From a virus (lineage: Duplodnaviria > Heunggongvirae > Uroviricota > Caudoviricetes), in IMG/VR virus record IMGVR_UViG_3300030618_000005: a stretch of DNA of 64,000 nucleotides. One strand, written 5' to 3'. Every line of letters starts with the position of its first letter. Positions within the stretch are counted from its first letter, which is position 1. This document shows, piece by piece, positions 144 to 44,975 of the stretch. The notes under the pieces were generated by a model. It saw only the letters and a list, made by a program, of their open reading frames with translations, did no database searches and was not told where the DNA came from. The position numbers and the translations under genes were made by a program.

Positions 144-1346
144 TTAGGCATAACTCTCCTCTTCCATCACCAGCTTGACGCCGTTGTTGTCGTCATCATC
201 TGGGTCACCCATAACGGGCCGGTTCAACTCTTCACGGTACTCGTCGCGCACCATCTTCCACGCAGCCTGCGACGGGTCTTTGCCATCGTAGGCCATGAAG
301 CAGAGGCCAGAGTACTTGCCGTCCTTCTCGGTTAGGAAGAACTCAGCAACAGACTTGCGACTCTCGTAGTTGCGGATAAGCGCATTGTCTACGATCTTCT
401 TGGTCTGAAGCATGATGCCAGCGTACGCAGTGGTGAAGGTCTTCTGCCACTCCTCAACGAAGCTCACAAGCTCCGGTCGGCCAGCATCCTTCGTCCATGT
501 CTCGATGATATCGTAGTCCCCGTTCGTCAGCGCCTCAAGGATGTTCTTCGGGGTCGCCGCGTGAACAATCTTCTGGAGCTTCAGGAAGGTCTCATGCTTC
601 ACCTTGATCTTCAAAGGCGGAAGGTTGGGCCGCCAGTACGACAGCACGTAGCCCTCCGTGTTCGGTCGATCCTCTACTAGAACCGTGCTCACCGTCTTAG
701 CAAAAATCTCGACGGTCTTTAGTCCGTTCAGGAATGCGTAGTGGTACAGCTCGTTGTAGCTAATCTCTTCGCCGGTCTCGTTGTTGATGAGCGCCAGTAA
801 GACTAGTTGATCTTCGATCTCGTAATGAACCACGTGGCGTTGAACTGCCTGCGCGATCATCTCAAAGACTGGTGTGTAGCCCGCAGGCCACTGGTGGTTC
901 TTGCAGTGCTTACTGAACCAGTACGTCGCCCACTTGGAGTGGTCAGACGTGAATGATCCTTTGGACGCGACACCGAAGAACGTATCGTTCCCTACCTTGT
1001 ACTCGTAGAAGATACCGAGTGACCCATCCAGCTTGTCGAAGACAGCAGGGTGTTGGTCCGGCAGATTGGTGAACAGAGTCTCAGGCCGGTCCAGCGTGTC
1101 GATGTTGAAGAACTTCTCGAACGGACGAGAGATGATGACACCCTTGTCGTCCACGATGAGACCACGGCACTTGATGGTGATGTCGTCCCAGACGTTATCA
1201 AAGGTCGCCTGCTTGCTATAGCAGAGGATCGACAACGGAAGCTCAGGGTGAGCGCGACGGGTAACTAGACCCTCCGCGATATACTGCTCAAGCTTGTCTA
1301 CGTCGAGGTAGTCTTTTAGCAACATTACTTCAGCTCCTTGGTCCAC
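144..1346 (-). CDS. rnlA: ATP-dependent RNA ligase, T4 RnlA (Rnl1)-like
   Basis: Motif I KLDGSL, CRGLIV..SRPFEKFFNID block, EGYV and LKIKVK motifs align by eye to T4 Rnl1. Confidence 0.75.
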   Translation of the reverse strand: MDQGAEVMLLKDYLDVDKLEQYIAEGLVTRRAHPELPLSILCYSKQATFDNVWDDITIKCRGLIVDDKGVIISRPFEKFFNIDTLDRPETLFTNLPDQHPAVFDKLDGSLGIFYEYKVGNDTFFGVASKGSFTSDHSKWATYWFSKHCKNHQWPAGYTPVFEMIAQAVQRHVVHYEIEDQLVLLALINNETGEEISYNELYHYAFLNGLKTVEIFAKTVSTVLVEDRPNTEGYVLSYWRPNLPPLKIKVKHETFLKLQKIVHAATPKNILEALTNGDYDIIETWTKDAGRPELVSFVEEWQKTFTTAYAGIMLQTKKIVDNALIRNYESRKSVAEFFLTEKDGKYSGLCFMAYDGKDPSQAAWKMVRDEYREELNRPVMGDPDDDDNNGVKLVMEEESYA

Positions 1347-3778: not shown

Positions 3779-5285
3779 TATCGGCTCCCTTCGTCAGGTG
3801 GTGCCACGGGTACACATCCAGTTGCCAACACGTCGGACTGTAGCACCTCGGCGCTCCGTGGTTCCCGTCGCAGGTCACCATTGGTGTCCACGGGTCCGAA
3901 GCTACACACGAGGTCAGCTTCTTGCCAGTGCCTATACCACTCGTCGTCGCCCCATTCGTTGAGGCTGGTTTGTCCTTGCATGGTTCCTCGTCTCTGAACT
4001 TCCGGCCCAGCACGTCCATCAGGCTGGCCACGTTCTTAGGTTCGATAAGTTCGCCATCTACGTCGCGCTTGTACCCCAGAGCTTTGTAGCTCAGGTCTAT
4101 CGGATGCTTGGACGCGAACAGATCATTACAGGCTTTGCATCCCTTCCCATCGTTGCAGGTCGGTTTGCGGCTGCCCTTGTAGTTCTTGAATGCCTTGCAT
4201 TCGAGCTGTAGGGCCTCTTCCTGCTCTTGCTTCTTCTTTGCCTTGGCCTCGGCCTTCGCCAGTGCCTCCGATTCGTCCTTGGCCTTCTTAGCGGCTTGCT
4301 TCTCCGCTTTGATGGCGTCCCTCAAAGACTGTTTTCGTTCTTGGATGCGGGACTCGATCTTGCGGACTCGACGAACAAGGTCAAGAGCATCAATAAATCC
4401 ACCAAAGTCATCCACGAAGTTATGCGATTCAAGGTGCCATGTTTCAAATTCGCCGTCGTCTTTACCCAGTCGGATGATCCATCGATCCTCAACCACCTCG
4501 CCGGTCTCTTCTTCATAGGCCGCCTCATAAGCCGCTGTCTGTAGCAAGTACTCCAAGTACAGGTAGTTCGATGTCTTCCAGTCCGCTACCGTCAGCCGGT
4601 CCTTGAACGGATGGGGGCAGCATCGCGGGTTGTCGCACGAGTCCACTTCACACAAACCGTCCAGTGTACCGGCATACTTGTGCTTGCGACTGTAAATCTT
4701 TCGCTCGGTGAATCTCCACCGGACGTTGTGCTTCTGCATCCAGTCGAGCGCGGCCTTGGTTGCGTTCAGCGCCCGCTCATCGAGCTTGGCACGCTTCCAG
4801 CCCATGTGATCCTTCACCGCCTGCGTAAACAATGCGTATGCTTCGGTGTCCATCACCTCGGCAGACTTCAGCTCCTTCTGCCAAATCTTCAGCTTGATGT
4901 ACTGCTCGATCCAGTCATGCGCGGAGTGACCGATAGCACCGGCCTCTTCAAGCTTCTCCTTGTGGGCACCCTTAGCGTCCAAGACCCACTTCTCAAGGTC
5001 CGGCACAGGGATGACGTGGCATGGGGGAAAGCCCACTACTGATCCCGGCACATCCTTCAGGAGCTTTTGGGCCATCATCTTGCAACCCCACGGCACGAGT
5101 GCAGCGGACTTGTCGATGATGTGGCAGACGGTCGTAACACCGTCCTGTGGTTCCAGCTCCCCGGTTTCTGTTTCAAGCAGGTAGACGTGGGCATCCACAT
5201 CGTACCTGATAGTCACCTCGCCATTGTAAAACTTATACTCTTCGGTGATGCCACCAAACTGTTTGATGAATCCTTCTAAAGCCAC
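3771..5285 (-). CDS. PD-(D/E)XK (RecB/Cas4-like) nuclease with Cys-rich C-terminal region
   Basis: VADWKTS..Y..QTAAYEAAY nuclease motifs; internal GRKFRDEE motif. Confidence 0.55.
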   Translation of the reverse strand: MALEGFIKQFGGITEEYKFYNGEVTIRYDVDAHVYLLETETGELEPQDGVTTVCHIIDKSAALVPWGCKMMAQKLLKDVPGSVVGFPPCHVIPVPDLEKWVLDAKGAHKEKLEEAGAIGHSAHDWIEQYIKLKIWQKELKSAEVMDTEAYALFTQAVKDHMGWKRAKLDERALNATKAALDWMQKHNVRWRFTERKIYSRKHKYAGTLDGLCEVDSCDNPRCCPHPFKDRLTVADWKTSNYLYLEYLLQTAAYEAAYEEETGEVVEDRWIIRLGKDDGEFETWHLESHNFVDDFGGFIDALDLVRRVRKIESRIQERKQSLRDAIKAEKQAAKKAKDESEALAKAEAKAKKKQEQEEALQLECKAFKNYKGSRKPTCNDGKGCKACNDLFASKHPIDLSYKALGYKRDVDGELIEPKNVASLMDVLGRKFRDEEPCKDKPASTNGATTSGIGTGKKLTSCVASDPWTPMVTCDGNHGAPRCYSPTCWQLDVYPWHHLTKGADSE

Positions 5286-5309
5286 TCGTCCCTTACGTCA
5301 ACTCACCAG

Positions 5310-5516
5310 TTAGATCAATGCCCGCATGGGCACGTTCTCCTCTGGGTGGCTATGGTTCTGTTGCCAGTCCACAACCGCTTTCGCGCAACTCACTTTTGAG
5401 AAGCCGATGAGACCGTCCTCACCGAAGTAGGTGAAGCCGTCTTGATTCTGCACACATTCTGTTACTATGCCGGTGGTAGGCTTTGACCTTTTCACCGGCC
5501 CTAAGATTGAATCCAT
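5310..5516 (-). CDS. hypothetical protein
   Basis: small ORF in array. Confidence 0.3.
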   Translation of the reverse strand: MDSILGPVKRSKPTTGIVTECVQNQDGFTYFGEDGLIGFSKVSCAKAVVDWQQNHSHPEENVPMRALI

Positions 5517-5518
5517 GA

Positions 5519-5719
5519 TTACTCCTCGAACGGGATACCAAACAACACGTGCTCGAACAGCGTGCCAAGGGTCAGCTCGTGAACGTGGTTGATGACACTC
5601 GTGTGCATCTGCTGCTCCACGAAGTACGTGACGACTACCAGACCGGCGAGTATCAGAACCTTGCGAGTCAGGTAGTGCTGCCAGTGAATCCGAGGTGGCC
5701 TTACATGCGGAAAGTGCAT
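5519..5719 (-). CDS. small membrane protein
   Basis: hydrophobic segment LILAGLVVVTYF. Confidence 0.3.
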   Translation of the reverse strand: MHFPHVRPPRIHWQHYLTRKVLILAGLVVVTYFVEQQMHTSVINHVHELTLGTLFEHVLFGIPFEE

Positions 5720-5720
5720 A

Positions 5721-6965
5721 CTATCTCCTTTTCGTTAGAAGTGCGCCTTGGAACTGAGCCATCGTATCGCCTTCTGGCCGCCCCTTGACAAAAGAGGTCG
5801 CCTGTGCTAGGGAATCCTCCGGGTAAAAGCGTTGGTACAGCTTGATCTTCTGATCGTCGGTCGCTTGACCAAGGTGCAGAAGTACATCGATCCGACCGGG
5901 CCTAATCAACGCCGGGTCCAGATTGTCGAGATGGTTCGTGGTCATGATGTAGATCACGCCGCTAGGGGCATGAAAGCCATCGAGAACATTCAGTAACCCA
6001 GATAGTGTAACACCAAACAGCTTCTCGTGTCCATCACTATCTTCAACTTTGTTCGGGTGGGGTCCGGGTGTTACGCCTTCCTTCCACTCCTGATCCCTTG
6101 GGCCGTCATTAGTGGCCTTGCGTTTCTTGCCAGCACCAGATGCGTCGATGTCCTCGAACATGATGATCGAACCTTCGGGCACAGTGCTTATCGCAGTCTT
6201 CAATCCCTTGTCACTCAGGTCACCAAGGTTCATCAGGTAAATGTCCCGGCTCAGTTGGTACGCTAACCCTGACGCCAAGGATGTCTTGCCGGTCCCCGGA
6301 GGCCCATAGAAGGCGTAGCCACGATGGTAAGGGATACCCAGCTCCCTATAGCGTTCCTTGTCGCCTAGGAACTCGTTTACGTCTTGCAGCAGTTTCTCCT
6401 TCTCCTGCCCGTCGAGCACCACGGACTCAAACGTACGCGGCGAATAGCTCCTCAGCTTTATCCAGTACTCGTCCCACACATACAGCTTGCTCTCACTACG
6501 CTCAGCCTCTTTGTGAATCTCGATGATCTCGGTAACGAACTGCTTGATGCGTTCCTGCCTGCGGCCAATCGTGCTGAAGGAGATTGTCTCACTCCTCTTC
6601 GCGTCCCAGCCGCCCTTCTTATCCTCGCTCCGCGTGTAGTTCAGCCAGAATGGTAGACGCTTGTGCCAGAAGAAGTGCTCCCCCGGCGCGGGCATCAGAG
6701 AGATGAGCTTGCCACGGATGGTCGAGTCAAGATCGACGCGGCGTACACGCGGCATGAATTTCTGCTTGGTGATCCACTCCTTCACCCAAAGAAAGGAAGG
6801 GTCGTCGTCCTTCACTGTTACGCTTACGAGTACTTGTCGTTTGAACCAGAGCCAAATCATCTGCGGCACTGATTTCATGTAGGCCATCACACCACCCATA
6901 ACTAGAAGCATTGCTCCACTGGCGGTAAACTGATTCAACATCTCAGGTGGTAGCCCTATGAGCAT
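5721..6965 (-). CDS. BCS1-like AAA+ ATPase with N-terminal transmembrane segment
   Basis: Walker A GPPGTGKTS, Walker B IIMFEDIDAS, GVTLSGLLNVLDG, PALIRPGRID; N-terminal TM. Confidence 0.75.
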   Translation of the reverse strand: MLIGLPPEMLNQFTASGAMLLVMGGVMAYMKSVPQMIWLWFKRQVLVSVTVKDDDPSFLWVKEWITKQKFMPRVRRVDLDSTIRGKLISLMPAPGEHFFWHKRLPFWLNYTRSEDKKGGWDAKRSETISFSTIGRRQERIKQFVTEIIEIHKEAERSESKLYVWDEYWIKLRSYSPRTFESVVLDGQEKEKLLQDVNEFLGDKERYRELGIPYHRGYAFYGPPGTGKTSLASGLAYQLSRDIYLMNLGDLSDKGLKTAISTVPEGSIIMFEDIDASGAGKKRKATNDGPRDQEWKEGVTPGPHPNKVEDSDGHEKLFGVTLSGLLNVLDGFHAPSGVIYIMTTNHLDNLDPALIRPGRIDVLLHLGQATDDQKIKLYQRFYPEDSLAQATSFVKGRPEGDTMAQFQGALLTKRR

Positions 6966-7206: not shown

Positions 7207-7670
7207 TATACTACCGTCCTGTTCTTCTTGTTGAAGCGATTCTCCAGCCGGTTGAGGTTCACATCGCCCCGTTGAACGACTGTACGCTTCTCAGTACCGT
7301 TAGGTTGAACCCTAACACGGACCACAGTGGCGGGTCCATTCTTAGGATAGGTCTTGAATCCATCCTTCGACTTCTGCTTGGCCTTGAACGCGGCCTGAGC
7401 CTTCTGCTTTGCTGCTTGAATCGCCGCCTTGTCCGGCCCTAGGTAGTAGTGCGGGAACTGCGGGGTGTGGCTGAAGTGACCACCGCGCTCATGAGTCTTC
7501 TGGGCGAAGCGCCAACCTTTGAGCCATAGATCACGCTGCGGGTTGGTAGTGTACGGAACGTCGATGCGTTGCGGTTTGTGGTCTGCTCCAAAGTATCCAG
7601 TGCTGTAAGCACCATAGTATGCGTCGTAACCGGCCTTGAGTGCGCCGAGTGAAGCCTTCTTGTTTGACAA
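7206..7670 (-). CDS. ribosome modulation factor (Rmf)-like domain protein with basic C-terminal extension
   Basis: GYDAYYGAY..VPYTTNPQRDLWLKGWRFA matches Rmf core GYQAG..CPYQTLNQRSQWLGGWREA. Confidence 0.5.
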   Translation of the reverse strand: MSNKKASLGALKAGYDAYYGAYSTGYFGADHKPQRIDVPYTTNPQRDLWLKGWRFAQKTHERGGHFSHTPQFPHYYLGPDKAAIQAAKQKAQAAFKAKQKSKDGFKTYPKNGPATVVRVRVQPNGTEKRTVVQRGDVNLNRLENRFNKKNRTVV

Positions 7671-8256: not shown

Positions 8257-8568
8257 CTATGCAGTTAGCGTAGTGCCCACCTTGGCCCTGCAAACATGAG
8301 AATCCGGCATACCTAGTCCGCAAGCAGGGCATTCTCTAAGCGGTCGAAGCCCACCCTTGGTCTGATTTTCTGGAAACATGAAGGCGTCTACATCTTCTCC
8401 GCATACTTCGTAGATTTCATCGATCTGCCCCTGTGTATAGTTTTGAAATTCGATGCGGATAGATTCGCCAGCCCCTAGTGCGTCCAGAAGAGCATCATAG
8501 ACAGGTGCATGATTGCAGTCAGTCAGTCCGCACCATTCACATCGAATCCACATCCCCTCACTCATCAC
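8257..8568 (-). CDS. Cys-rich hypothetical protein
   Basis: CEWCGLTDC..C..C pattern. Confidence 0.4.
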   Translation of the reverse strand: MMSEGMWIRCEWCGLTDCNHAPVYDALLDALGAGESIRIEFQNYTQGQIDEIYEVCGEDVDAFMFPENQTKGGLRPLRECPACGLGMPDSHVCRAKVGTTLTA

Positions 8569-9121
8569 GGAACCTCCTGCCTACATGCTCGGGTTTTACT
8601 ACCACAACCTTATGCTTCGCTTGGGCCTCACGCATCTGTAATAACACAGCTTCTTTCTCAGCCAGCTTCGCATTCTGTCTTCGCTTCTTTTCTAACTTCA
8701 GCTTCTCCTGATTCTTTTCGTAGATATTCAGGGAGTCCCTGAGCTTGTTGCGCTTGTTCTGCAACTCGGTCATCTCTACGCTCAGTGCATCCATTTTCTC
8801 ATTCGCAGTCTTCAGGTTGCGCTCAGTCATAAAGAGCGCGTTCATCAGGTGCGAGTCTTCCATCTCGGAGAGTAGTACCTTCTTACCCTCCTTGGTCGTC
8901 CAGTATAGCGCACCCACAGACATCATCGATGGTAGCGGGCCACCCGTGTACGGGTCCACTTTCGGGGGCATGTACTTCGCTACCGACGCCTTCGCCTCAG
9001 CAACAGTGCCGGTTCCCACCACGAGGTAGCCGTCCTCATCGTAGACGTTGATTCCCCCGAATGAGTCCTTCTTCATTGTGAACTTGCTAGGCGTACCGGG
9101 TACGCCGGGGAGAACGCCCAT
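8558..9121 (-). CDS. coiled-coil protein ending in GRRFRDE
   Basis: K/E-rich heptads; shared C-terminal motif. Confidence 0.5.
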   Translation of the reverse strand: MGVLPGVPGTPSKFTMKKDSFGGINVYDEDGYLVVGTGTVAEAKASVAKYMPPKVDPYTGGPLPSMMSVGALYWTTKEGKKVLLSEMEDSHLMNALFMTERNLKTANEKMDALSVEMTELQNKRNKLRDSLNIYEKNQEKLKLEKKRRQNAKLAEKEAVLLQMREAQAKHKVVVVKPEHVGRRFRDE

Positions 9122-9732
9122 TAGCAGCGAACTCCTATCAGCTCCAAGTCCTCGCGTAGGCGATCAGATGTCATCGGCTGGTCGTACTGGGACAGGTCCA
9201 GCTTGTCCAGTGAGAAGTCGTTAGAGTATACGATGGAATTGTACTCGCGGTTCGGCTCTCCTTCAAAGATGAACCACGCAGCCGGTTTGCCCTTTGGGAC
9301 ATAGACCGAGTGGAGAGCCTGCGCAGCGAGGTGAGTGGGTTCCAAGAGACGCCTCGCCCTGAGCCTCAGAGGTAGGTAGGCGCGATCCAAGGGCGCAAAG
9401 CCACCCCTACCATCCTTCTCAAGGATCGGTGACGCATAGCTAAAGCTCTGCATGGGTACTGTGCTGACGAGAGGATCACTCTGGCCCATGGCTGCCTCGA
9501 CGTTATATAGCTCACCTAACACTGGCATGAGTGTGACATCCGTACGATGCCGGTGAAGGGCAATCGAGAAGGTTACACCAAATGTGCCGGGGTTGTTACG
9601 CCACAGCTCATGTTCAGGGCGGGCGATGAACATGCGGACCATCCCCGGCCCTTCTTTGATGAGTAAGGAGTCCATGCCCTTGCAGTGGCAGTTGACGAGA
9701 GACTTGGAGAGTATTGCGCTCGATGGATTCAC
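9121..9732 (-). CDS. hypothetical protein
   Basis: 203 aa ORF. Confidence 0.4.
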   Translation of the reverse strand: MNPSSAILSKSLVNCHCKGMDSLLIKEGPGMVRMFIARPEHELWRNNPGTFGVTFSIALHRHRTDVTLMPVLGELYNVEAAMGQSDPLVSTVPMQSFSYASPILEKDGRGGFAPLDRAYLPLRLRARRLLEPTHLAAQALHSVYVPKGKPAAWFIFEGEPNREYNSIVYSNDFSLDKLDLSQYDQPMTSDRLREDLELIGVRC

Positions 9733-10272
9733 TTATGCCTCGATTCCTAGATGGGAGTTGATTGCATCTGAAGCAGTATCGTCAGACACTCTCAGGTAGT
9801 AGCCAGTCGAGGACAAGCTCTTGTGGCCAAGTCTTTGTTTAGCGTTCTCAATACCGGACCCAATGACGAGCATGGCAATCGAGTGCTTCAGCGTGTGCGT
9901 GTGCGCGAACCGTGGGTTGATACCAGCCCGCAGTGCAGCGGCTTTGAATACTTTGCGAACCCAGTCACGACCGATGGGCAGCAGCAGCTCATCGTCCGCG
10001 ATCTCCAACCGTTCGAGCATTGCGTACTCGTCCAGCTCCGGGTCAGGATGCTTCTGCCACCGTTGCGAGGTAGCCAGCGATCCCTTCAGGCGCTTACAGT
10101 CCACGTATCCGTGGCGAAGGTCGCGCCCTTTGATACCAGTGATCTCGGAGGCCCGCAAGCCATGCCAGAAACCGATGAGGTAGGCCAGCTTGAACCTCTC
10201 ACCCTTCTCGCTCTCGATCTCCCTGAGTACCGCCTTCACTTGGTCAATCTTTAGATACTTCATTCCGTTCAC
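9733..10272 (-). CDS. small tyrosine recombinase (catalytic domain only)
   Basis: RASE, HTLKHS, LGHKSLSSTGYY (R..H-x-x-R..Y) in 179 aa. Confidence 0.6.
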   Translation of the reverse strand: MNGMKYLKIDQVKAVLREIESEKGERFKLAYLIGFWHGLRASEITGIKGRDLRHGYVDCKRLKGSLATSQRWQKHPDPELDEYAMLERLEIADDELLLPIGRDWVRKVFKAAALRAGINPRFAHTHTLKHSIAMLVIGSGIENAKQRLGHKSLSSTGYYLRVSDDTASDAINSHLGIEA

Positions 10273-10299
10273 CTCAAGTACAGACTAGCAAACGATGAT

Positions 10300-10821
10300 C
10301 TACTTGTCAATGCCTAAATACGCAGCATCTTCCTGTGTGTAATAAAGCAAGTTGTTGCCCTTCCTCTGGATAAAGACACCGGGTAGGTTCTTTAGCTTAG
10401 CACGCACCTCGGGGTGTACCCCCGGACTGTACCCCATAGCTGCGAGTACCTCTACCGTGTTCATTCCCGGTGTCTCGTCGATTGCGTGGAGTGCCCGATA
10501 GTCGGCCCAGAGTTCCTTTGGTTTCTCAAATGCTTCCCTGACCTTGAGAAGCCTGCGCTCTTCCTTGGTAAACACTGGAGGGTCGTCAGCCACCATTGGT
10601 GGGAGGGCGACGAAGTACCGTACTGCCGGACCATGACCCCCTCTGGGTTGCCGCCTTGATTCTTTGAAGTCCTTGCCGTTTACCAGTATCCTCCACACTA
10701 CGCTGCGTGGTATAGATGTATCTTTGACCACTTGGTCTATGGATACCTCACCATGTTCCTTGGTGTAGTTGTATACGGTCGTGTAACGTTCGTAGCCGAG
10801 TACATTACCTCTGAATGCCAT
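10300..10821 (-). CDS. putative wHTH DNA-binding protein
   Basis: IPRSVVWRIL helix-like segment; adjacent to recombinase. Confidence 0.35.
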   Translation of the reverse strand: MAFRGNVLGYERYTTVYNYTKEHGEVSIDQVVKDTSIPRSVVWRILVNGKDFKESRRQPRGGHGPAVRYFVALPPMVADDPPVFTKEERRLLKVREAFEKPKELWADYRALHAIDETPGMNTVEVLAAMGYSPGVHPEVRAKLKNLPGVFIQRKGNNLLYYTQEDAAYLGIDK

Positions 10822-12096: not shown

Positions 12097-12777
12097 TTAC
12101 GAGGTTACCGTTGCCCTCATGCGCCGGTAGATCGTTGTGGCTCCCCCCAAGAGTCCAGTGCCTAAGAGCAGCAGGCTGCTGGGTTCAGGGGTAGGTGCCA
12201 GCGGTGTCGTTGGTCCAGTACCGTTCGAGGTGAACTGGAGGAAGTCTTGCGCTGTGCCGCCCTCGCTCTGCGTACCGGGTACGGCGGTGTACAAGGTGAA
12301 CTGCTGGAGGAACGCCTGCGTCACGTCGCCGCTCAGAGCCAGCGTTTCGTCTTGGAAGAGCAGCGGGTCATCTGCGTTGAAGTTCCAGCCCAGTGTCTCG
12401 GCGCTGTTCACGTCCGTCAAGGCCCAGATATCGAGCTGCGCCGTGGTGTCAGAGATAACTCCGGTCTGCGCCTGATAGAGCAGGAGGGCACTGGTTACGT
12501 CGTCCCCATTCGGCGGGTGGGCTGCGCTGAGATTCTGCGGAGTTGCCTGCCATGACTCACCCACGTAGATTTCGCGGTCGGCATCGAGGCAGAAGGCGGA
12601 GATGTCGCTCTTGTTGGAGTCGTACAGGCTATAAGGCCCGACGTAGACTGCGCCGGTTGGGTTGACAACATTGCCGGGGCTTACGAGGGAGAGGGTGTCG
12701 GCGTGCGCGGTCAGTGACAAGGCCGCGAGGATAAGTGCGGCTACCACTGGGATGTACTGCTTGAAGGTGATTCGCAT
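12097..12777 (-). CDS. secreted PEP-CTERM sorting-domain protein
   Basis: N-terminal signal peptide; C-terminal PEPSSLLLLGTGLLGGATTIYRRMRA (exosortase target). Confidence 0.65.
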   Translation of the reverse strand: MRITFKQYIPVVAALILAALSLTAHADTLSLVSPGNVVNPTGAVYVGPYSLYDSNKSDISAFCLDADREIYVGESWQATPQNLSAAHPPNGDDVTSALLLYQAQTGVISDTTAQLDIWALTDVNSAETLGWNFNADDPLLFQDETLALSGDVTQAFLQQFTLYTAVPGTQSEGGTAQDFLQFTSNGTGPTTPLAPTPEPSSLLLLGTGLLGGATTIYRRMRATVTS

Positions 12778-32715: not shown

Positions 32716-33117
32716 CTATTTGCGCCACTCCCCGGCTTGTCGAGTAAGTAAGTCTTCCTCTTCCATGTGACAATTAGCACACAGTAGATCACACTTATCC
32801 AACTCTGTCTTGACGGTCTCCCAAGGCTTAGTGTATGCCCTGCAAAGATCAAAGTTTTTGCTGGCAGGACTAAGGTGATGAAATCCTAAAGCCCTGATGC
32901 ATCTATCGTAACCACAGGCGACACATTTGCCACCCTTATACTCAACCATACGCCGTTTGATCTCATTCCTACGTCTATTGGCATTGCAGGAATTGCAAAT
33001 ATGTCGTTTGTGCCCCTTAGCACGGTCGTACACATACTCTCGACCACAGTTGCATTTGGTTGTGAGAGAAGGAGTTGAACCTTCAACCTCTCGCTTATCG
33101 AGCGATTGCTCTGCCAT
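32716..33117 (-). CDS. HNH endonuclease
   Basis: GFHHL..N..CANCH plus CxxC pairs; N-terminal 20 codons overlap the tRNA-like gene, so true start uncertain. Confidence 0.55.
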   Translation of the reverse strand: MAEQSLDKREVEGSTPSLTTKCNCGREYVYDRAKGHKRHICNSCNANRRRNEIKRRMVEYKGGKCVACGYDRCIRALGFHHLSPASKNFDLCRAYTKPWETVKTELDKCDLLCANCHMEEEDLLTRQAGEWRK

Positions 33118-33564: not shown

Positions 33565-33965
33565 GCCAGTGACAACCCCAATCACCCGCCGACCGACCCC
33601 ATGAAAATCCATTCGTCAGCCTTCCCACGTAAATGTTTAGACTGGGGGATCGCTCCCCCTTCTGTTGCTAGGCCCGTCAAGAGGCCCCAGCGGTTATTAG
33701 GCCGCAAGTAGCTGTGCTGCAACAACGCTCTTGCGAACGCTGAAACGGACACGGCTGTGGCTGACACTTTCGGTGACAGTTCTTTTTTTCCAGCAGTCAA
33801 GGTCGCTAGGCACCTGCACAGTCCACTCTTCTATCTGTATCCGTCGAAGCCGTGACATCCCCGTATGCGGTACGCTTACGAGATTGTTTTGGTGGAGATG
33901 GCGAGAGTCGAACTCGCGTCCGTCTACCGACTTTGGAGCTTCATACCATGCGTAACTTTTTGAAT
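33565..33965 (-). ncRNA. ssrA: circularly permuted (two-piece) tmRNA-like gene
   Basis: See first finding: E. coli-like 3-prime T-arm/acceptor with encoded CCA, GGGGAUG 5-prime end with G3:U70, tag frame ..AAQLLAA-UAA-UAA. Confidence 0.6.
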
Positions 33966-33993
33966 TGTATCAAACTTGATCGGTCTTGTCAAC
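33964..33993 (-). promoter_or_regulatory. sigma70-like promoter TTGACA-17-TACAAT for the tmRNA acceptor piece
   Basis: Consensus hexamers with 17-bp spacer, read on minus strand. Confidence 0.5.
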
Positions 33994-34323
33994 CTTCGGT
34001 TTGCAGAAACCTCTATAGTCTCTGGGGTATCCCTTACCTGCGTTGTGTTCGACTGTTTTCAGTGTACAGTACTCGGATAGTTCTGTCAAGCACTTTGGAT
34101 CGAAAACTGTTTCGGGTCCGGGGTGGAACGTGTACTTCCGCCAGTGTGGGAACCACTTGATGATTCCCAGTGCAGCGCCGGTCTTAGACATCACGTCAAA
34201 GACGTGGGTAGTGCCGCCTTTACGGGCCTTCCCCACATCCTTGAACAGGAGATATTCGCCGCGCTCCCATAGACTGTCCATTCGCTCGATCAATATGTCA
34301 CCACGTAGACGATGGCTGCACAC
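33970..34323 (-). CDS. hypothetical protein
   Basis: ORF; start probably internal (MDSLWERG). Confidence 0.35.
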   Translation of the reverse strand: MCSHRLRGDILIERMDSLWERGEYLLFKDVGKARKGGTTHVFDVMSKTGAALGIIKWFPHWRKYTFHPGPETVFDPKCLTELSEYCTLKTVEHNAGKGYPRDYRGFCKPKVDKTDQV

Positions 34324-38953: not shown

Positions 38954-39077
38954 TTGCGGGTAGCTCAGCGGTAGAGCATTCGGCTGTGCGAGATGTGGAA
39001 CGCCACGCTCCAGTGCAACTCTGGAATCTCGAAAAGTAACCGAACGGTCGCTGGTTCGATCCCAGCCCCGTGAGCCA
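38954..39077 (+). tRNA. atypical tRNA-like gene with 49-nt structured insertion in anticodon arm
   Basis: Canonical acceptor, D-arm, T-arm and encoded CCA; anticodon stem TTCGG/CCGAA encloses a 56-nt three-way junction. Confidence 0.45.
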
Positions 39078-39346: not shown

Positions 39347-39871
39347 GTGAATGCCGGTACCTTTCTAGGGGCCAACAACGCGATGTCGAATCGAGTAAAA
39401 CTCAAAAAGAGCCAGCTCGATTATTTCCGCAAGCTGGCTCGTAAGTCCGACAAAGAGATCATGGCCTACCTCGTTGGTGAGGTGAAAGCCAAAGACTTGA
39501 TTGTCATTGATAGCTTCGAGTACACCAAGGATTACCACACGCAGACAGAGCAGCAGGTCTCGTGGTACGTCACGGAGTATAACAAAGTTAGAGAACGTGC
39601 TGAGGAGCGCGGGAAGAGCGTCATTGGTTACATACACACGCACCCACAATGGGACGCGGTGATGTCTCCGGTTGACTATGAAGGATGTGTGCGCGATATG
39701 CACCCGTTGTGCGGGATCACTTCCGTCAACAAGGGCAAGACGCGGACACGCTTCTGGGTCATGGACAGCTCACTTCCCTGTGATGTGATCTATGTCGAAG
39801 AAAAACGAAGTTCTAAAACGAAACGAAGTGGCCCTGAAGCAGCCGAAGCTGGTCAGGATCAGGGACTATAA
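39347..39871 (+). CDS. JAB/MPN (JAMM) metalloprotease domain protein
   Basis: HTHPQWDAVMSPVD = HxHx7Sx2D; upstream Glu; start may be ATG 39383. Confidence 0.65.
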   Translation: MNAGTFLGANNAMSNRVKLKKSQLDYFRKLARKSDKEIMAYLVGEVKAKDLIVIDSFEYTKDYHTQTEQQVSWYVTEYNKVRERAEERGKSVIGYIHTHPQWDAVMSPVDYEGCVRDMHPLCGITSVNKGKTRTRFWVMDSSLPCDVIYVEEKRSSKTKRSGPEAAEAGQDQGL

Positions 39872-42938: not shown

Positions 42939-44975
42939 ATGAAGCTTCAGAAACTACGAGACCTAATCGCCTCGTGTAAGACGAACCCGAACTATCAGTT
43001 CCGTGAAACAAGTAACGAAGATATCCTCGCGTTGGCCAAGAAGAGCTTTTCGAAGCTCACTGACGGTCAGCGCGAGAAGGTTTATGCGTCATGGAAACGT
43101 GCGCTAGACATGAACAAGGAGGCGCTGGACGACTCAACCGGTGAGCTATTGCTCATCGCTCGATTCATGGCCCAGACCAACCTGTTCTTCATGTGTCACC
43201 TGTTGGAAACCTACAACAAGGTCACCGTGAATACCCACGAAGAAATTTGCAACAAGTTTTTCGTGCAGAAGAACCCGACTTTCGTAACAGTAGAGAAGTT
43301 TGCCAACCAGTATACTGACCTCAAGGATCGAATGTTGCTAGTCCCACGAGGCGGGTTCAAATCTTCTATCGACATTGCAGACGTGGTTCAGTGGGTGAGT
43401 TGCTACCCCGCGATTACCATTCTGATCCTGACGGGTGTGTTCGACCTCGCCAGTGACTTCCTCGGAGAAGTCAAGAACCACTTCACTCTCATAGAGTCGC
43501 AGAAGCTCGACACCAAGACCGGCAAGCCGGTACTCGTGCCCAAGCTCTTCTTCGACGAAGAGACAGAGGAATGGTCTGAAAGCATGTTCCAAACGTTGTT
43601 CCCTGAGCACTGTGTTCCTCCAGCCTCAGGCACTCAGTTCGAGTATCACTCCCCAGCGCAGGGCGATCAGAAAGAGCCAACCGTGAAGGCCGCGTCCATC
43701 GGACAAGCCCTCGTCGGTAAGCACTTTGACGTGATGAAGCTGGACGACGTTATCACGAACGAGAACAGTCAAACCGTTGACCGTTTGAAGAAAATCGCTA
43801 AGCAGATCAGTATTGATCGAGCCATGCTTCACCCTTACGGATTCATGGACGTAATCGGCACGTGGTACGACGAGAAGGACTACTACGGCGAGAAGATCAA
43901 GCAGCAGGAAACGTTCATCAAGGAAGAGGGTCTGTCGAACCTCATCACTGGCAGCGTTGACTCCGGGCGACTGAACATCGAGTACAAGACCAAGACCTAC
44001 CTTCGAGCCGCAATGTGGCTCACCGATCAAGCGATCAAGGAAGGCAAGACCGACGTAGACGCCAAAGGTCCAGACTATGAACTCTGGTTCCCTGAGCGTC
44101 TGCCTTTTAGCTTTTTGTATGATGAGAGAAAGACGGACCCGGAAGGGTTCGCCATCAAGTACCTCAACAACCCGAGAAAGATCAACCGTATCAAGTTCGA
44201 GCGTGCCCTTCTGATGAAGCGCACTATCCCGCACAACATGCTGCCGCCGCAAGGCGTCGTCGTGACGACAGTAGACACAGCGTATTCAACAAAGTCATGG
44301 GCCGATTACACCGTTATCCTGACCACGCTGATATATGGCGGGCGTTTCTACATCCTCAACATGGTGCGCGGACGATTCAACGAGATCGAGCTGCCTGCGG
44401 TTATCGCCAACACAGCGTACAAATGGAAGCCTAAGCGAATCGCCATCGAAGACTCGGTGGGCGTGAAGTGGATGGGACGCGAACTCCGTCGAGAGATGGA
44501 CAAGCTGCAAATCAGCATTCCGATTGAGTACTGCTCTCTGGGCCTCGGCAAGAAGTCTAACTCGAAACAGATGAAAGCCAAGCCGGTACTCCGACTGCTT
44601 GGCGACGAGCGTATGTTCTTCCTCAACTCCTGCGAAGGGTTGAACGAACTCTACAACGAACTCGAAGCCTTCACGGGCACCAGCGACGACACACACGACG
44701 ACATTATCTCCGCACTATCCCTATTGGTTGAGCAGTTCATCTCTTATGCCGATGTGGGATCGAAAGTGGACATGGTGAACTCGCAGTATGTTGCAGATCA
44801 ACAGAACCACGAACGTCATCAACTCGTACACGGTATTGGCAAGTATGCTCACATGAACATAAAGGCCCAGCTCGTGAATGATGACAACCCGGTGACTGCG
44901 TTCCAGATCGACAACAGCCGTATGTTCCGCGATGAGCCAATGGGCACTGACCCGTTTGCCGATCTATTCAACTAA
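42939..44975 (+). CDS. terL: terminase large subunit
   Basis: N-terminal ATPase block LLVPRGGFKSS; RNaseH-like nuclease block VVTTVDTAYST..HDDIISALSL; RMFRDEP near C-terminus. Confidence 0.85.
   Translation: MKLQKLRDLIASCKTNPNYQFRETSNEDILALAKKSFSKLTDGQREKVYASWKRALDMNKEALDDSTGELLLIARFMAQTNLFFMCHLLETYNKVTVNTHEEICNKFFVQKNPTFVTVEKFANQYTDLKDRMLLVPRGGFKSSIDIADVVQWVSCYPAITILILTGVFDLASDFLGEVKNHFTLIESQKLDTKTGKPVLVPKLFFDEETEEWSESMFQTLFPEHCVPPASGTQFEYHSPAQGDQKEPTVKAASIGQALVGKHFDVMKLDDVITNENSQTVDRLKKIAKQISIDRAMLHPYGFMDVIGTWYDEKDYYGEKIKQQETFIKEEGLSNLITGSVDSGRLNIEYKTKTYLRAAMWLTDQAIKEGKTDVDAKGPDYELWFPERLPFSFLYDERKTDPEGFAIKYLNNPRKINRIKFERALLMKRTIPHNMLPPQGVVVTTVDTAYSTKSWADYTVILTTLIYGGRFYILNMVRGRFNEIELPAVIANTAYKWKPKRIAIEDSVGVKWMGRELRREMDKLQISIPIEYCSLGLGKKSNSKQMKAKPVLRLLGDERMFFLNSCEGLNELYNELEAFTGTSDDTHDDIISALSLLVEQFISYADVGSKVDMVNSQYVADQQNHERHQLVHGIGKYAHMNIKAQLVNDDNPVTAFQIDNSRMFRDEPMGTDPFADLFN

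Follow-up and report, generated by a model that had tools for sequence, protein, structure and literature searches.

The window analysed here, the whole 64,000-nucleotide (nt) stretch of the Caudoviricetes record IMGVR_UViG_3300030618_000005 (IMG/VR), carries on its minus strand a locus that, judging from its sequence, is very likely a functional phage ssrA gene, encoding transfer-messenger RNA (tmRNA) in the circularly permuted, two-piece form. A preliminary description had proposed a tmRNA-like gene of this architecture with its own promoter, and every sequence quoted in it was located on the minus strand. The elements of the locus, with the basis of each assignment, are the following.

33964-33992, minus strand: sigma-70-type promoter, with TTGACA at 33992-33987, a 17-nt spacer and TACAAT at 33969-33964 (promoter scan).
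33890-33957, minus strand: acceptor piece, equivalent to the 3' portion of standard tmRNA (Rfam alignment, covariation and cofolding; 5' end predicted from the promoter), which includes the 3' strands of P2 (Rfam alignment).
33917-33901, minus strand: T arm, GCGAG/UUCGACU/CUCGC (sequence, covariation).
33900-33894, minus strand: acceptor 3' strand, CAUCUCC (sequence, covariation).
33893, minus strand: discriminator A73, followed by the encoded CCA at 33892-33890 (sequence).
33863-33889, minus strand: spacer of 27 nt between CCA and G1 (sequence).
33644-33862, minus strand: coding piece, running from G1 (33862) through the final conserved hairpin (Rfam match and comparison; 3' boundary placed at the last conserved element), which includes the D-loop analogue UCACGGCUUCGA and the 5' strands of P2 (Rfam alignment).
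33862-33856, minus strand: acceptor 5' strand, GGGGAUG, forming 7 base pairs (bp) with CAUCUCC (sequence).
33790-33815, minus strand: probable pseudoknot 1 (PK1), with stem AGGU/ACCU and loop GCCUAGCG (first stem from the Rfam alignment).
33761-33779, minus strand: resume-codon hairpin, CUGUCAC and GUGUCAG around the loop CGAAA, seven positions with a central mismatch (comparison).
33694-33777, minus strand: tag frame, with the probable resume codon GUC at 33777-33775, then 26 codons and UAA UAA at 33699-33694 (frame and stop conserved).
33690-33705, minus strand: stop-codon hairpin, GCGG and CCGC around the loop CCUAAUAA, with the stops in the loop, similar to helix 5 (comparison).
33644-33666, minus strand: heptamer AACAGAA at 33666-33660, then the hairpin GGGGGA-GCGA-UCCCCC at 33659-33644 (comparison).

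The identification rests on two independent programs. The Rfam model of permuted tmRNA (RF04321) matched positions 33952-33697 (-) over its full length (model positions 1-213) with 71.1 bits, against a gathering score of 47 bits (E = 1e-11 for the whole 64 kb), and ARAGORN called a permuted tmRNA (tmRNA*) at 33985-33491. Both checks bear out the two-piece architecture that had been proposed. The standard one-piece model (RF00023) gave only a partial match to its 3' end, at model positions 186-374 and with 36.9 bits against 47. Moreover, the search pattern shared by the clade, GTTCGAC-N10-TCCACCA-N8-38-GGGNNNGTCACGG, was found once in the window and in none of 100 shuffles, confirming that the signal of the locus is far beyond chance. 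The gene lies within the span first reported (33565-33993); the part from 33565 to 33643 is beyond the last conserved element at about 33644, and its membership in the gene is unsupported.

The promoter has 11 of 12 consensus matches and a TG extension at 33972-33971, and was the best site in a region in which the scan found three sites against 1.0 expected. Transcription would start near 33957. The two hexamers and their 17-nt spacing were as first described, whereas the distance of about 8 nt to the acceptor piece was not, since 11 nt separate the -10 hexamer from the start of the model match. Another promoter-like sequence, TTGACA-17-TACACT with 10 of 12 matches, is present at 34061-34089 (-), in the same direction and inside the open reading frame (ORF) upstream of the tmRNA.

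The acceptor stem joins the upstream 3' strand to the downstream 5' strand by 7 bp, and the T stem has 5 bp and a 7-nt loop; all pairs are canonical. The coding piece opens with GGGGAUGUCACGGCUUCGACGG from 33862 (-). The pairing of GGGGAUG with CAUCUCC, the presence of G3:U70 and the distance of about 27 nt between the pieces, all noted previously, were thus found as described, the last being exactly 27 nt. Comparison among relatives showed compensatory variation at acceptor pairs 4-6 and at T-stem pairs 1, 2 and 4, with 24 of 25 sequences fully paired. These positions are unconstrained in the search pattern, which itself forces G3:U70; the alanine identity elements G3:U70, A73 and CCA are also present in the copies that were found without the pattern, those of the window, of the phages Tunturi_3 and Tunturi_4 and of the viral contig L005 (fetched loci are designated by L and a number). 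An unconstrained cofold of the two pieces, with the spacer removed, recovered the T arm and, joining one piece to the other, the acceptor stem. The spacer is presumably discarded in processing, and the variation of its length, from 10 to 36 nt in the relatives derived from the pattern and 154 nt in Tunturi_4, fits a discarded segment.

The Rfam alignment gives helices P2a, P2b and P2c, with compensatory differences between the window and Tunturi_3 (GCAU/GUGC versus ACACG/CGUGU, and GUA/UAC versus UGU/GCA). Duplex folding across the family gave a mean of -21.9 kcal/mol for cognate P2 strands, versus -16.6 kcal/mol for non-cognate ones. Downstream of P2, PK1 is probably present: its loop would pair with the downstream (U)GCUGG (duplex of -7.9 kcal/mol), ending 12 nt before the proposed resume codon, and pairings of this type could be drawn in 13 of the 13 members tested, ending 8 to 12 nt before the resume codon, a count that carries no formal statistic. 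In Escherichia coli the spacing between PK1 and the resume codon is about 11 nt.

The 26-amino-acid (aa) tag, VTESVSHSRVRFSVRKSVVAAQLLAA, finishes at 33694 (-) with GCA GCA CAG CUA CUU GCG GCC UAA UAA, which is the frame (AAQLLAA and a double stop) that had been read initially. An equivalent Ala-rich, hydrophobic C-terminus and stop frame is found in every member, with ends such as MLAA, LLMAA, LPLAA, ALALAA and AMAAAA; the tag of Tunturi_3 ends in FATMLAA. The tags of the group have 22 to 37 aa, and share the terminal Ala-Ala and a near-invariant central Phe, often within F-P-x-R. The alternative tag that ARAGORN gives for the window, GKADEWIFMGSVGG*, was rejected, as no relative has a comparable frame and all have the Ala-rich frame at the position indicated in the preliminary description. 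The resume position was taken from the alignment with L009, L036 and L001 (Tunturi_3) and from the ARAGORN calls for L036 and L043, in which the program independently picks the same frame and resume site; from this alignment the resume codon of the window gene is probably GUC. It is preceded by an A-rich tract, GGAAAAAAAGAA, and then by the start of the resume-codon hairpin, which in the subgroup of the window begins 2 nt before the codon. This hairpin occurs in seven members, with compensatory changes (CAC:GUG, UAC:GUA and CAA:UUG). At the other end of the frame, 10 of the 18 members have the stop in the loop of a hairpin whose stem has 4 bp or more, and the 3' strand of this stem tracks the final Ala codons.

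Eight of 18 members have in their 3' domain the heptamer AACAGAA, 27 to 39 nt past the stop (chance of about 0.006 per sequence), and the hairpin that follows it in the window (33659-33644) has a loop of the GNRA type. Both the motif and the overall layout are similar to those of the 3' hairpin loop conserved in the beta-type two-piece tmRNA model.

The phage itself, by its large terminase, SU10-type portal and SU10 adaptor genes, is an SU10-like podophage, with further genes for a family A DNA polymerase, an RNase H and several tRNAs. Its closest deposited relative, according to translated searches, is the Tunturiibacter phage Tunturi_3 (polymerase 59% identical), a podovirus of 97.6 kb isolated on an Acidobacteriota host (PMC11924767). 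The two phages share the gene order RNase H, polymerase, small ORFs, tmRNA, tRNAs, SPFH lipoprotein and phosphoesterase, and the host of the window phage is probably an acidobacterium. Two tRNA genes called by ARAGORN adjoin the tmRNA.

33131-33057, minus strand: tRNA-Ile.
32509-32434, minus strand: tRNA-Met.

These are the tRNA neighbours mentioned earlier for the locus. The adjacent ORF described then as HNH lies between them (32716-33117, -); it looks like HNH, with a CANCH motif, and has no Pfam match at E <= 0.01. As annotated, it begins within the 3' part of tRNA-Ile, and its true start is probably internal.

In Tunturi_3 the syntenic position (L001 9213-9437) matched RF04321 with 63.3 bits, and in L005, whose polymerase is 46% identical to that of the window, a tmRNA is also found downstream of the polymerase gene. 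Thus, this position is kept in all three related phages with enough sequence (window, Tunturi_3 and L005). A further isolate, the siphovirus Tunturi_4, has a tmRNA at about 43530-43941 of PP885687 (L044 2975-3384, +) with 79.2 bits, the long spacer mentioned above and a 33-aa tag. This gene is directly downstream of gp53, which encodes an RF-1-domain (GGQ) protein 74% identical to Tunturi_3 gp125, and the two phages are otherwise unrelated. The RF-1 protein is absent from the window and from all other fetched loci, so that its association with the tmRNA is not general; in the window, ORF scans and tblastn found no RF-1/ArfB-like gene.

The pattern search returned 8 viral and 28 metagenomic loci, corresponding to about 26 usable distinct genes, and 19 of the 20 loci tested passed RF04321. 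False positives of the pattern were L027 and L034, which look like coding sequence, L025, which is a tRNA cluster, and L012, which scored below RF04321. A blastn search with the window locus and two relatives against deposited phages found no full-length homologue, its matches being limited to about 30 to 43 nt of the T arm and acceptor end; the divergence even of Tunturi_3 is beyond the reach of blastn.

The GenBank feature tables have nothing annotated at the tmRNA locus of Tunturi_3 or Tunturi_4, and the paper on these isolates, which used only tRNAscan-SE, does not mention tmRNA or ssrA (PMC11924767). Pipelines limited to tRNAscan miss such genes entirely. ARAGORN missed the Tunturi_3 tmRNA altogether, and caution in annotation is also advisable where it succeeds, because it detects the window gene and gives it a wrong tag, as it does in L009 and L035.

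Some other features were observed in these relatives. Just downstream of the Tunturi_3 tmRNA there is an atypical tRNA-like match (L001 9558-9615), and ARAGORN calls at L001 9785-9859 a tRNA with a four-base anticodon, 'gaaa'. In L009 the tmRNA is directly followed by a gene for a family A DNA polymerase (8391-10814), and some 2 kb before it there is an ORF of 389 aa (4924-6093) that contains a ribosomal L7/L12 C-terminal domain. The 332-kb viral contig IMGVR_UViG_3300033405_000002 (L010), from a jumbo phage, has at 7297-7583 two tRNAs with CUA anticodons, labelled tRNA-Pyl by ARAGORN; they are possible amber suppressors and lie about 4.5 kb from the permuted tmRNA of the contig.

The window gene did not reach the gathering score of any of the lineage-specific models, alpha (RF01849), beta (RF01850) or cyano (RF01851), and the matches to this clan in a permissive scan were all below 36.9 bits. 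The same library assigned the phage copies L003 and L011 to the beta type and L037 to the alpha type. The leader, P2 and 3'-loop sequences of the window resemble those of beta-type copies, from which we infer that the window gene is a diverged offshoot of the beta-type form, and not an independent permutation.

The same type of tmRNA was also found in bacteria. L043 (6660-7046), L046 (11304-11690), L047 and L048, which are four assemblies of one organism, carry a copy with the tag ANKGVFASKANVVSFPTRSAAPALALAA, and only cellular genes are present in the 10 kb on either side. The MFS neighbour in L043 has an identity of 72-79% with proteins that carry an Acidobacteriaceae label, and of 74% with a protein of Tunturiibacter empetritectus, suggesting that this chromosome is Acidobacteriaceae-like. 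The long-tag tmRNA type thus occurs outside phages as well. L049, the closest relative (MFS protein 90% identical), has the upstream genes conserved and lacks the tmRNA segment, so the chromosomal copy, which lies at a breakpoint of synteny, may itself have been acquired. In L045 and L049-L051, the loci reached through the L043 MFS neighbour, no tmRNA was found and synteny was not kept. In a 2025 database, 1589 of the 1595 Acidobacteriota tmRNA genes are of the standard one-piece form and five are permuted, with the beta model giving the highest scores for these (PMC11915505, Supplementary Table 2). Therefore, the form of the phage gene is rare in the phylum of the Tunturi_3 host.

A mechanism can be proposed with steps drawn from established two-piece tmRNAs (Keiler, Shapiro & Williams 2000; Sharkady & Williams 2004, cited in PMC9004378; PMC11915505). 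Host RNA polymerase would transcribe a single precursor, which tRNA-processing enzymes would convert into two RNAs, RNase P cutting 5' of G1 and the spacer being trimmed back to CCA. The two RNAs would be held together by the 7-bp acceptor stem and the P2 helices, and the host alanyl-tRNA synthetase would charge the molecule by means of G3:U70. Host SmpB and EF-Tu would then bring the charged RNA to ribosomes stalled on broken mRNA, and translation would resume on the tag frame, probably at GUC, freeing the ribosome and leaving a product with a degradation tag that ends in LAA. The phage would probably benefit by retaining usable ribosomes as host mRNA is broken down or cut in the infected cell. 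The position of the tmRNA in a block with phage tRNAs, with an Rnl1-like ligase encoded elsewhere in the window, fits a toolkit for the maintenance of translation.

It must be taken into account that several results weigh against a functional gene of this kind. No smpB was found in the window (about 50 ORFs scanned, and tblastn), so function would depend on a host SmpB that accepts the phage RNA, and the host itself is deduced solely from the relatedness to Tunturi_3. The aligned resume codon is GUC (Val) in the window and Tunturi_3, and GCN in all other members. The P2 strands of the window taken individually are not distinctive, as 10 of 23 foreign partners pair with them as well in duplex folding (not significant), and PK1, which we regard as probable, is without statistical support. 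Minimum free energy folds of the precursor and of the 3' domain as single sequences were not distinguishable from those of shuffles and are uninformative (z = -0.14 and -1.6). No terminator was found downstream on the minus strand, which leaves the 3' end undefined, and the transcript may extend into the ORF and tRNA genes that follow. Finally, expression, processing, charging with alanine and SmpB-dependent tagging are predicted from the analysis of the gene only.

A more far-reaching possibility, which we consider rather unlikely, is that the gene belongs to a distinct, largely phage-spread two-piece lineage, defined by a beta-like tRNA-like domain (TLD) with GUCACGG, tags of 22 to 37 aa with the central Phe, the resume hairpin and AACAGAA, and acting as a self-contained module for rescue or counter-defence in Acidobacteriota phages, the hosts of which use one-piece tmRNA, the long tag directing rescued products to a fate unlike that given by the host tag. 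In Tunturi_3 and Tunturi_4 the tmRNA is accompanied by the RF-1-domain protein, which has only the GGQ part.

It is much less probable that the RNA is a mimic that does not tag, its TLD titrating host SmpB or occupying stalled ribosomes, and so inhibiting or reprogramming trans-translation. The TLD-only molecule of mycobacteriophage DS6A is a precedent (PMC4131195, PMC11915505), and both the lack of a phage smpB in the window and the unusual GUC, which sits inside a hairpin, would agree with such a role. However, the full tag frame, the Ala-rich C-terminus, the double stop in a hairpin loop and the A-rich tract before the resume codon are conserved across the clade, whereas molecules of the DS6A type have no tag frame. 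A comparably poor candidate is a host or foreign ssrA captured recently and now decaying, as a passenger or pseudogene without a role in infection. Capture from a cell is plausible in view of the copy on the Acidobacteriaceae-like chromosome, and the failure of the window copy to reach any lineage-specific model, together with its individually weak P2, could be read as decay. On the other hand, the gene has stayed beside the polymerase gene in phages that share only 46-59% identity in that enzyme, compensatory change has preserved the stems from erosion, and the window copy has a near-consensus promoter. An attP-type remnant, that is, a 3' fragment of host ssrA on a temperate phage that integrates there, as phages and genomic islands often do, carrying the 3' end of the gene with them (PMC4131195, PMC9004378), is effectively refuted: the only integrase-family ORF of the window (9733-10272) is fragment-sized, with 179 aa, and about 23 kb from the locus, which also has the 5' acceptor strand, D-loop analogue, P2 strands, tag frame and promoter, in permuted order, and an acceptor stem that covaries between phages, unlike an attP copy of host sequence.

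A permuted ssrA gene on a phage is not without parallel. By 2014 the phage tmRNAs known were all one-piece (PMC4131195), and by 2021 ARAGORN had identified 53 two-piece tmRNAs in the genomes of phage isolates, 50 of them marine or aquatic (PMC9004378), so the initial remark that a phage-borne permuted tmRNA would be unusual was overstated. The marine examples, such as those of the OM43 phage Melnitz, of pelagimyophages like Mosig and of cyanophages (PMC9004378), have in common with the window a permuted ssrA on a lytic-looking tailed phage, located immediately downstream of a promoter, the lack of any reported phage smpB and a presumed role in maintaining or manipulating host translation. They are of the alpha or cyano type and resemble the tmRNA of the (recent) host lineage, the two-piece tmRNA of Melnitz being of a different lineage from that of its host (PMC9004378), whereas the window gene reaches no lineage-specific model. 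It also differs from them in belonging to a relative of soil Acidobacteriota phages, in having no riboswitch call and in its much longer tag.

The beta-type two-piece tmRNA (RF01850; Sharkady & Williams 2004) is similar to the window gene in having the promoter directly before the acceptor piece. The likeness extends to the leader and P2, with AGAUAG in both and AUGGUAUGAAG in the window against GUGGUAUGAUG in L003 and L011, phage copies of the beta type, and to the 3' layout, in which a hairpin or loop containing a conserved motif (UAGCAACAGAAG in the window, CCUUGUUACCAAAG in the beta consensus) comes after the stop, and then a terminal hairpin. However, the window gene is below the RF01850 gathering score of 84 bits, and its PK1, its tag (26 versus about 13 aa) and its 3' domain have diverged from the beta type. 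As in the one-piece tmRNAs of the mycobacteriophage Bxz1 group and Bacillus phage G, and in the TLD-only DS6A (PMC4131195), an ssrA-type phage gene is found beside tRNA genes; the former are in standard order and the latter has no tag frame, while the window gene is permuted with a full tag frame. With the standard tmRNA of Acidobacteriota it shares G3:U70, the T loop and the Ala-Ala tag end, which are general features of tmRNA, and the same function would be expected; the phylum's own tmRNA is nearly always one-piece, in contrast with the permuted gene of the window.

Phage-borne permuted tmRNA is thus already known, and standard tools detect the window gene. What the window gene adds is modest: it is carried by a relative of soil Acidobacteriota phages, belongs to a diverged subgroup with long tags, and has a form unlike the norm in the phylum that its nearest relative infects. 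These soil relatives join a short and almost entirely marine list of carriers of two-piece tmRNA, and two published cultured phages, Tunturi_3 and Tunturi_4, need a permuted tmRNA gene added to their annotation. Since the Tunturi phages and their hosts can be cultured, Tunturi_3 with Tunturiibacter psychrotolerans X5P2 and Tunturi_4 with T. empetritectus M8UP27, they provide a system in which to ask why phages bring their own ribosome-rescue RNA, a question sharpened by an RNA form that differs from the usual one-piece tmRNA of the host phylum and by the unusually long tag.

Other genes of the window deserve mention. A T4 Rnl1-type RNA ligase is encoded at 144-1346 (-) (PF09511, E = 1.5e-19); this family repairs cleaved tRNA, which fits a theme of translation repair together with the tRNAs and the tmRNA. 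The tRNA-Asn(GUU) gene at 38954-39074 (+) has a structured insertion of 49 nt inside the anticodon, after G34 and U35, which is too short for a group I intron; the gene scored 47.1 bits with the Rfam tRNA model and received no call from ARAGORN, and its orthologues in Tunturi_3 (L001 3228-3302) and L004 (4354-4429) are uninterrupted. The window also encodes a BCS1-like AAA ATPase (5721-6965, -), a protein with a PEP-CTERM sorting motif (12097-12777, -) and a JAB/MPN-domain protein (39347-39871, +), the Tunturi_3 counterpart of which is annotated as 'minor tail protein'.

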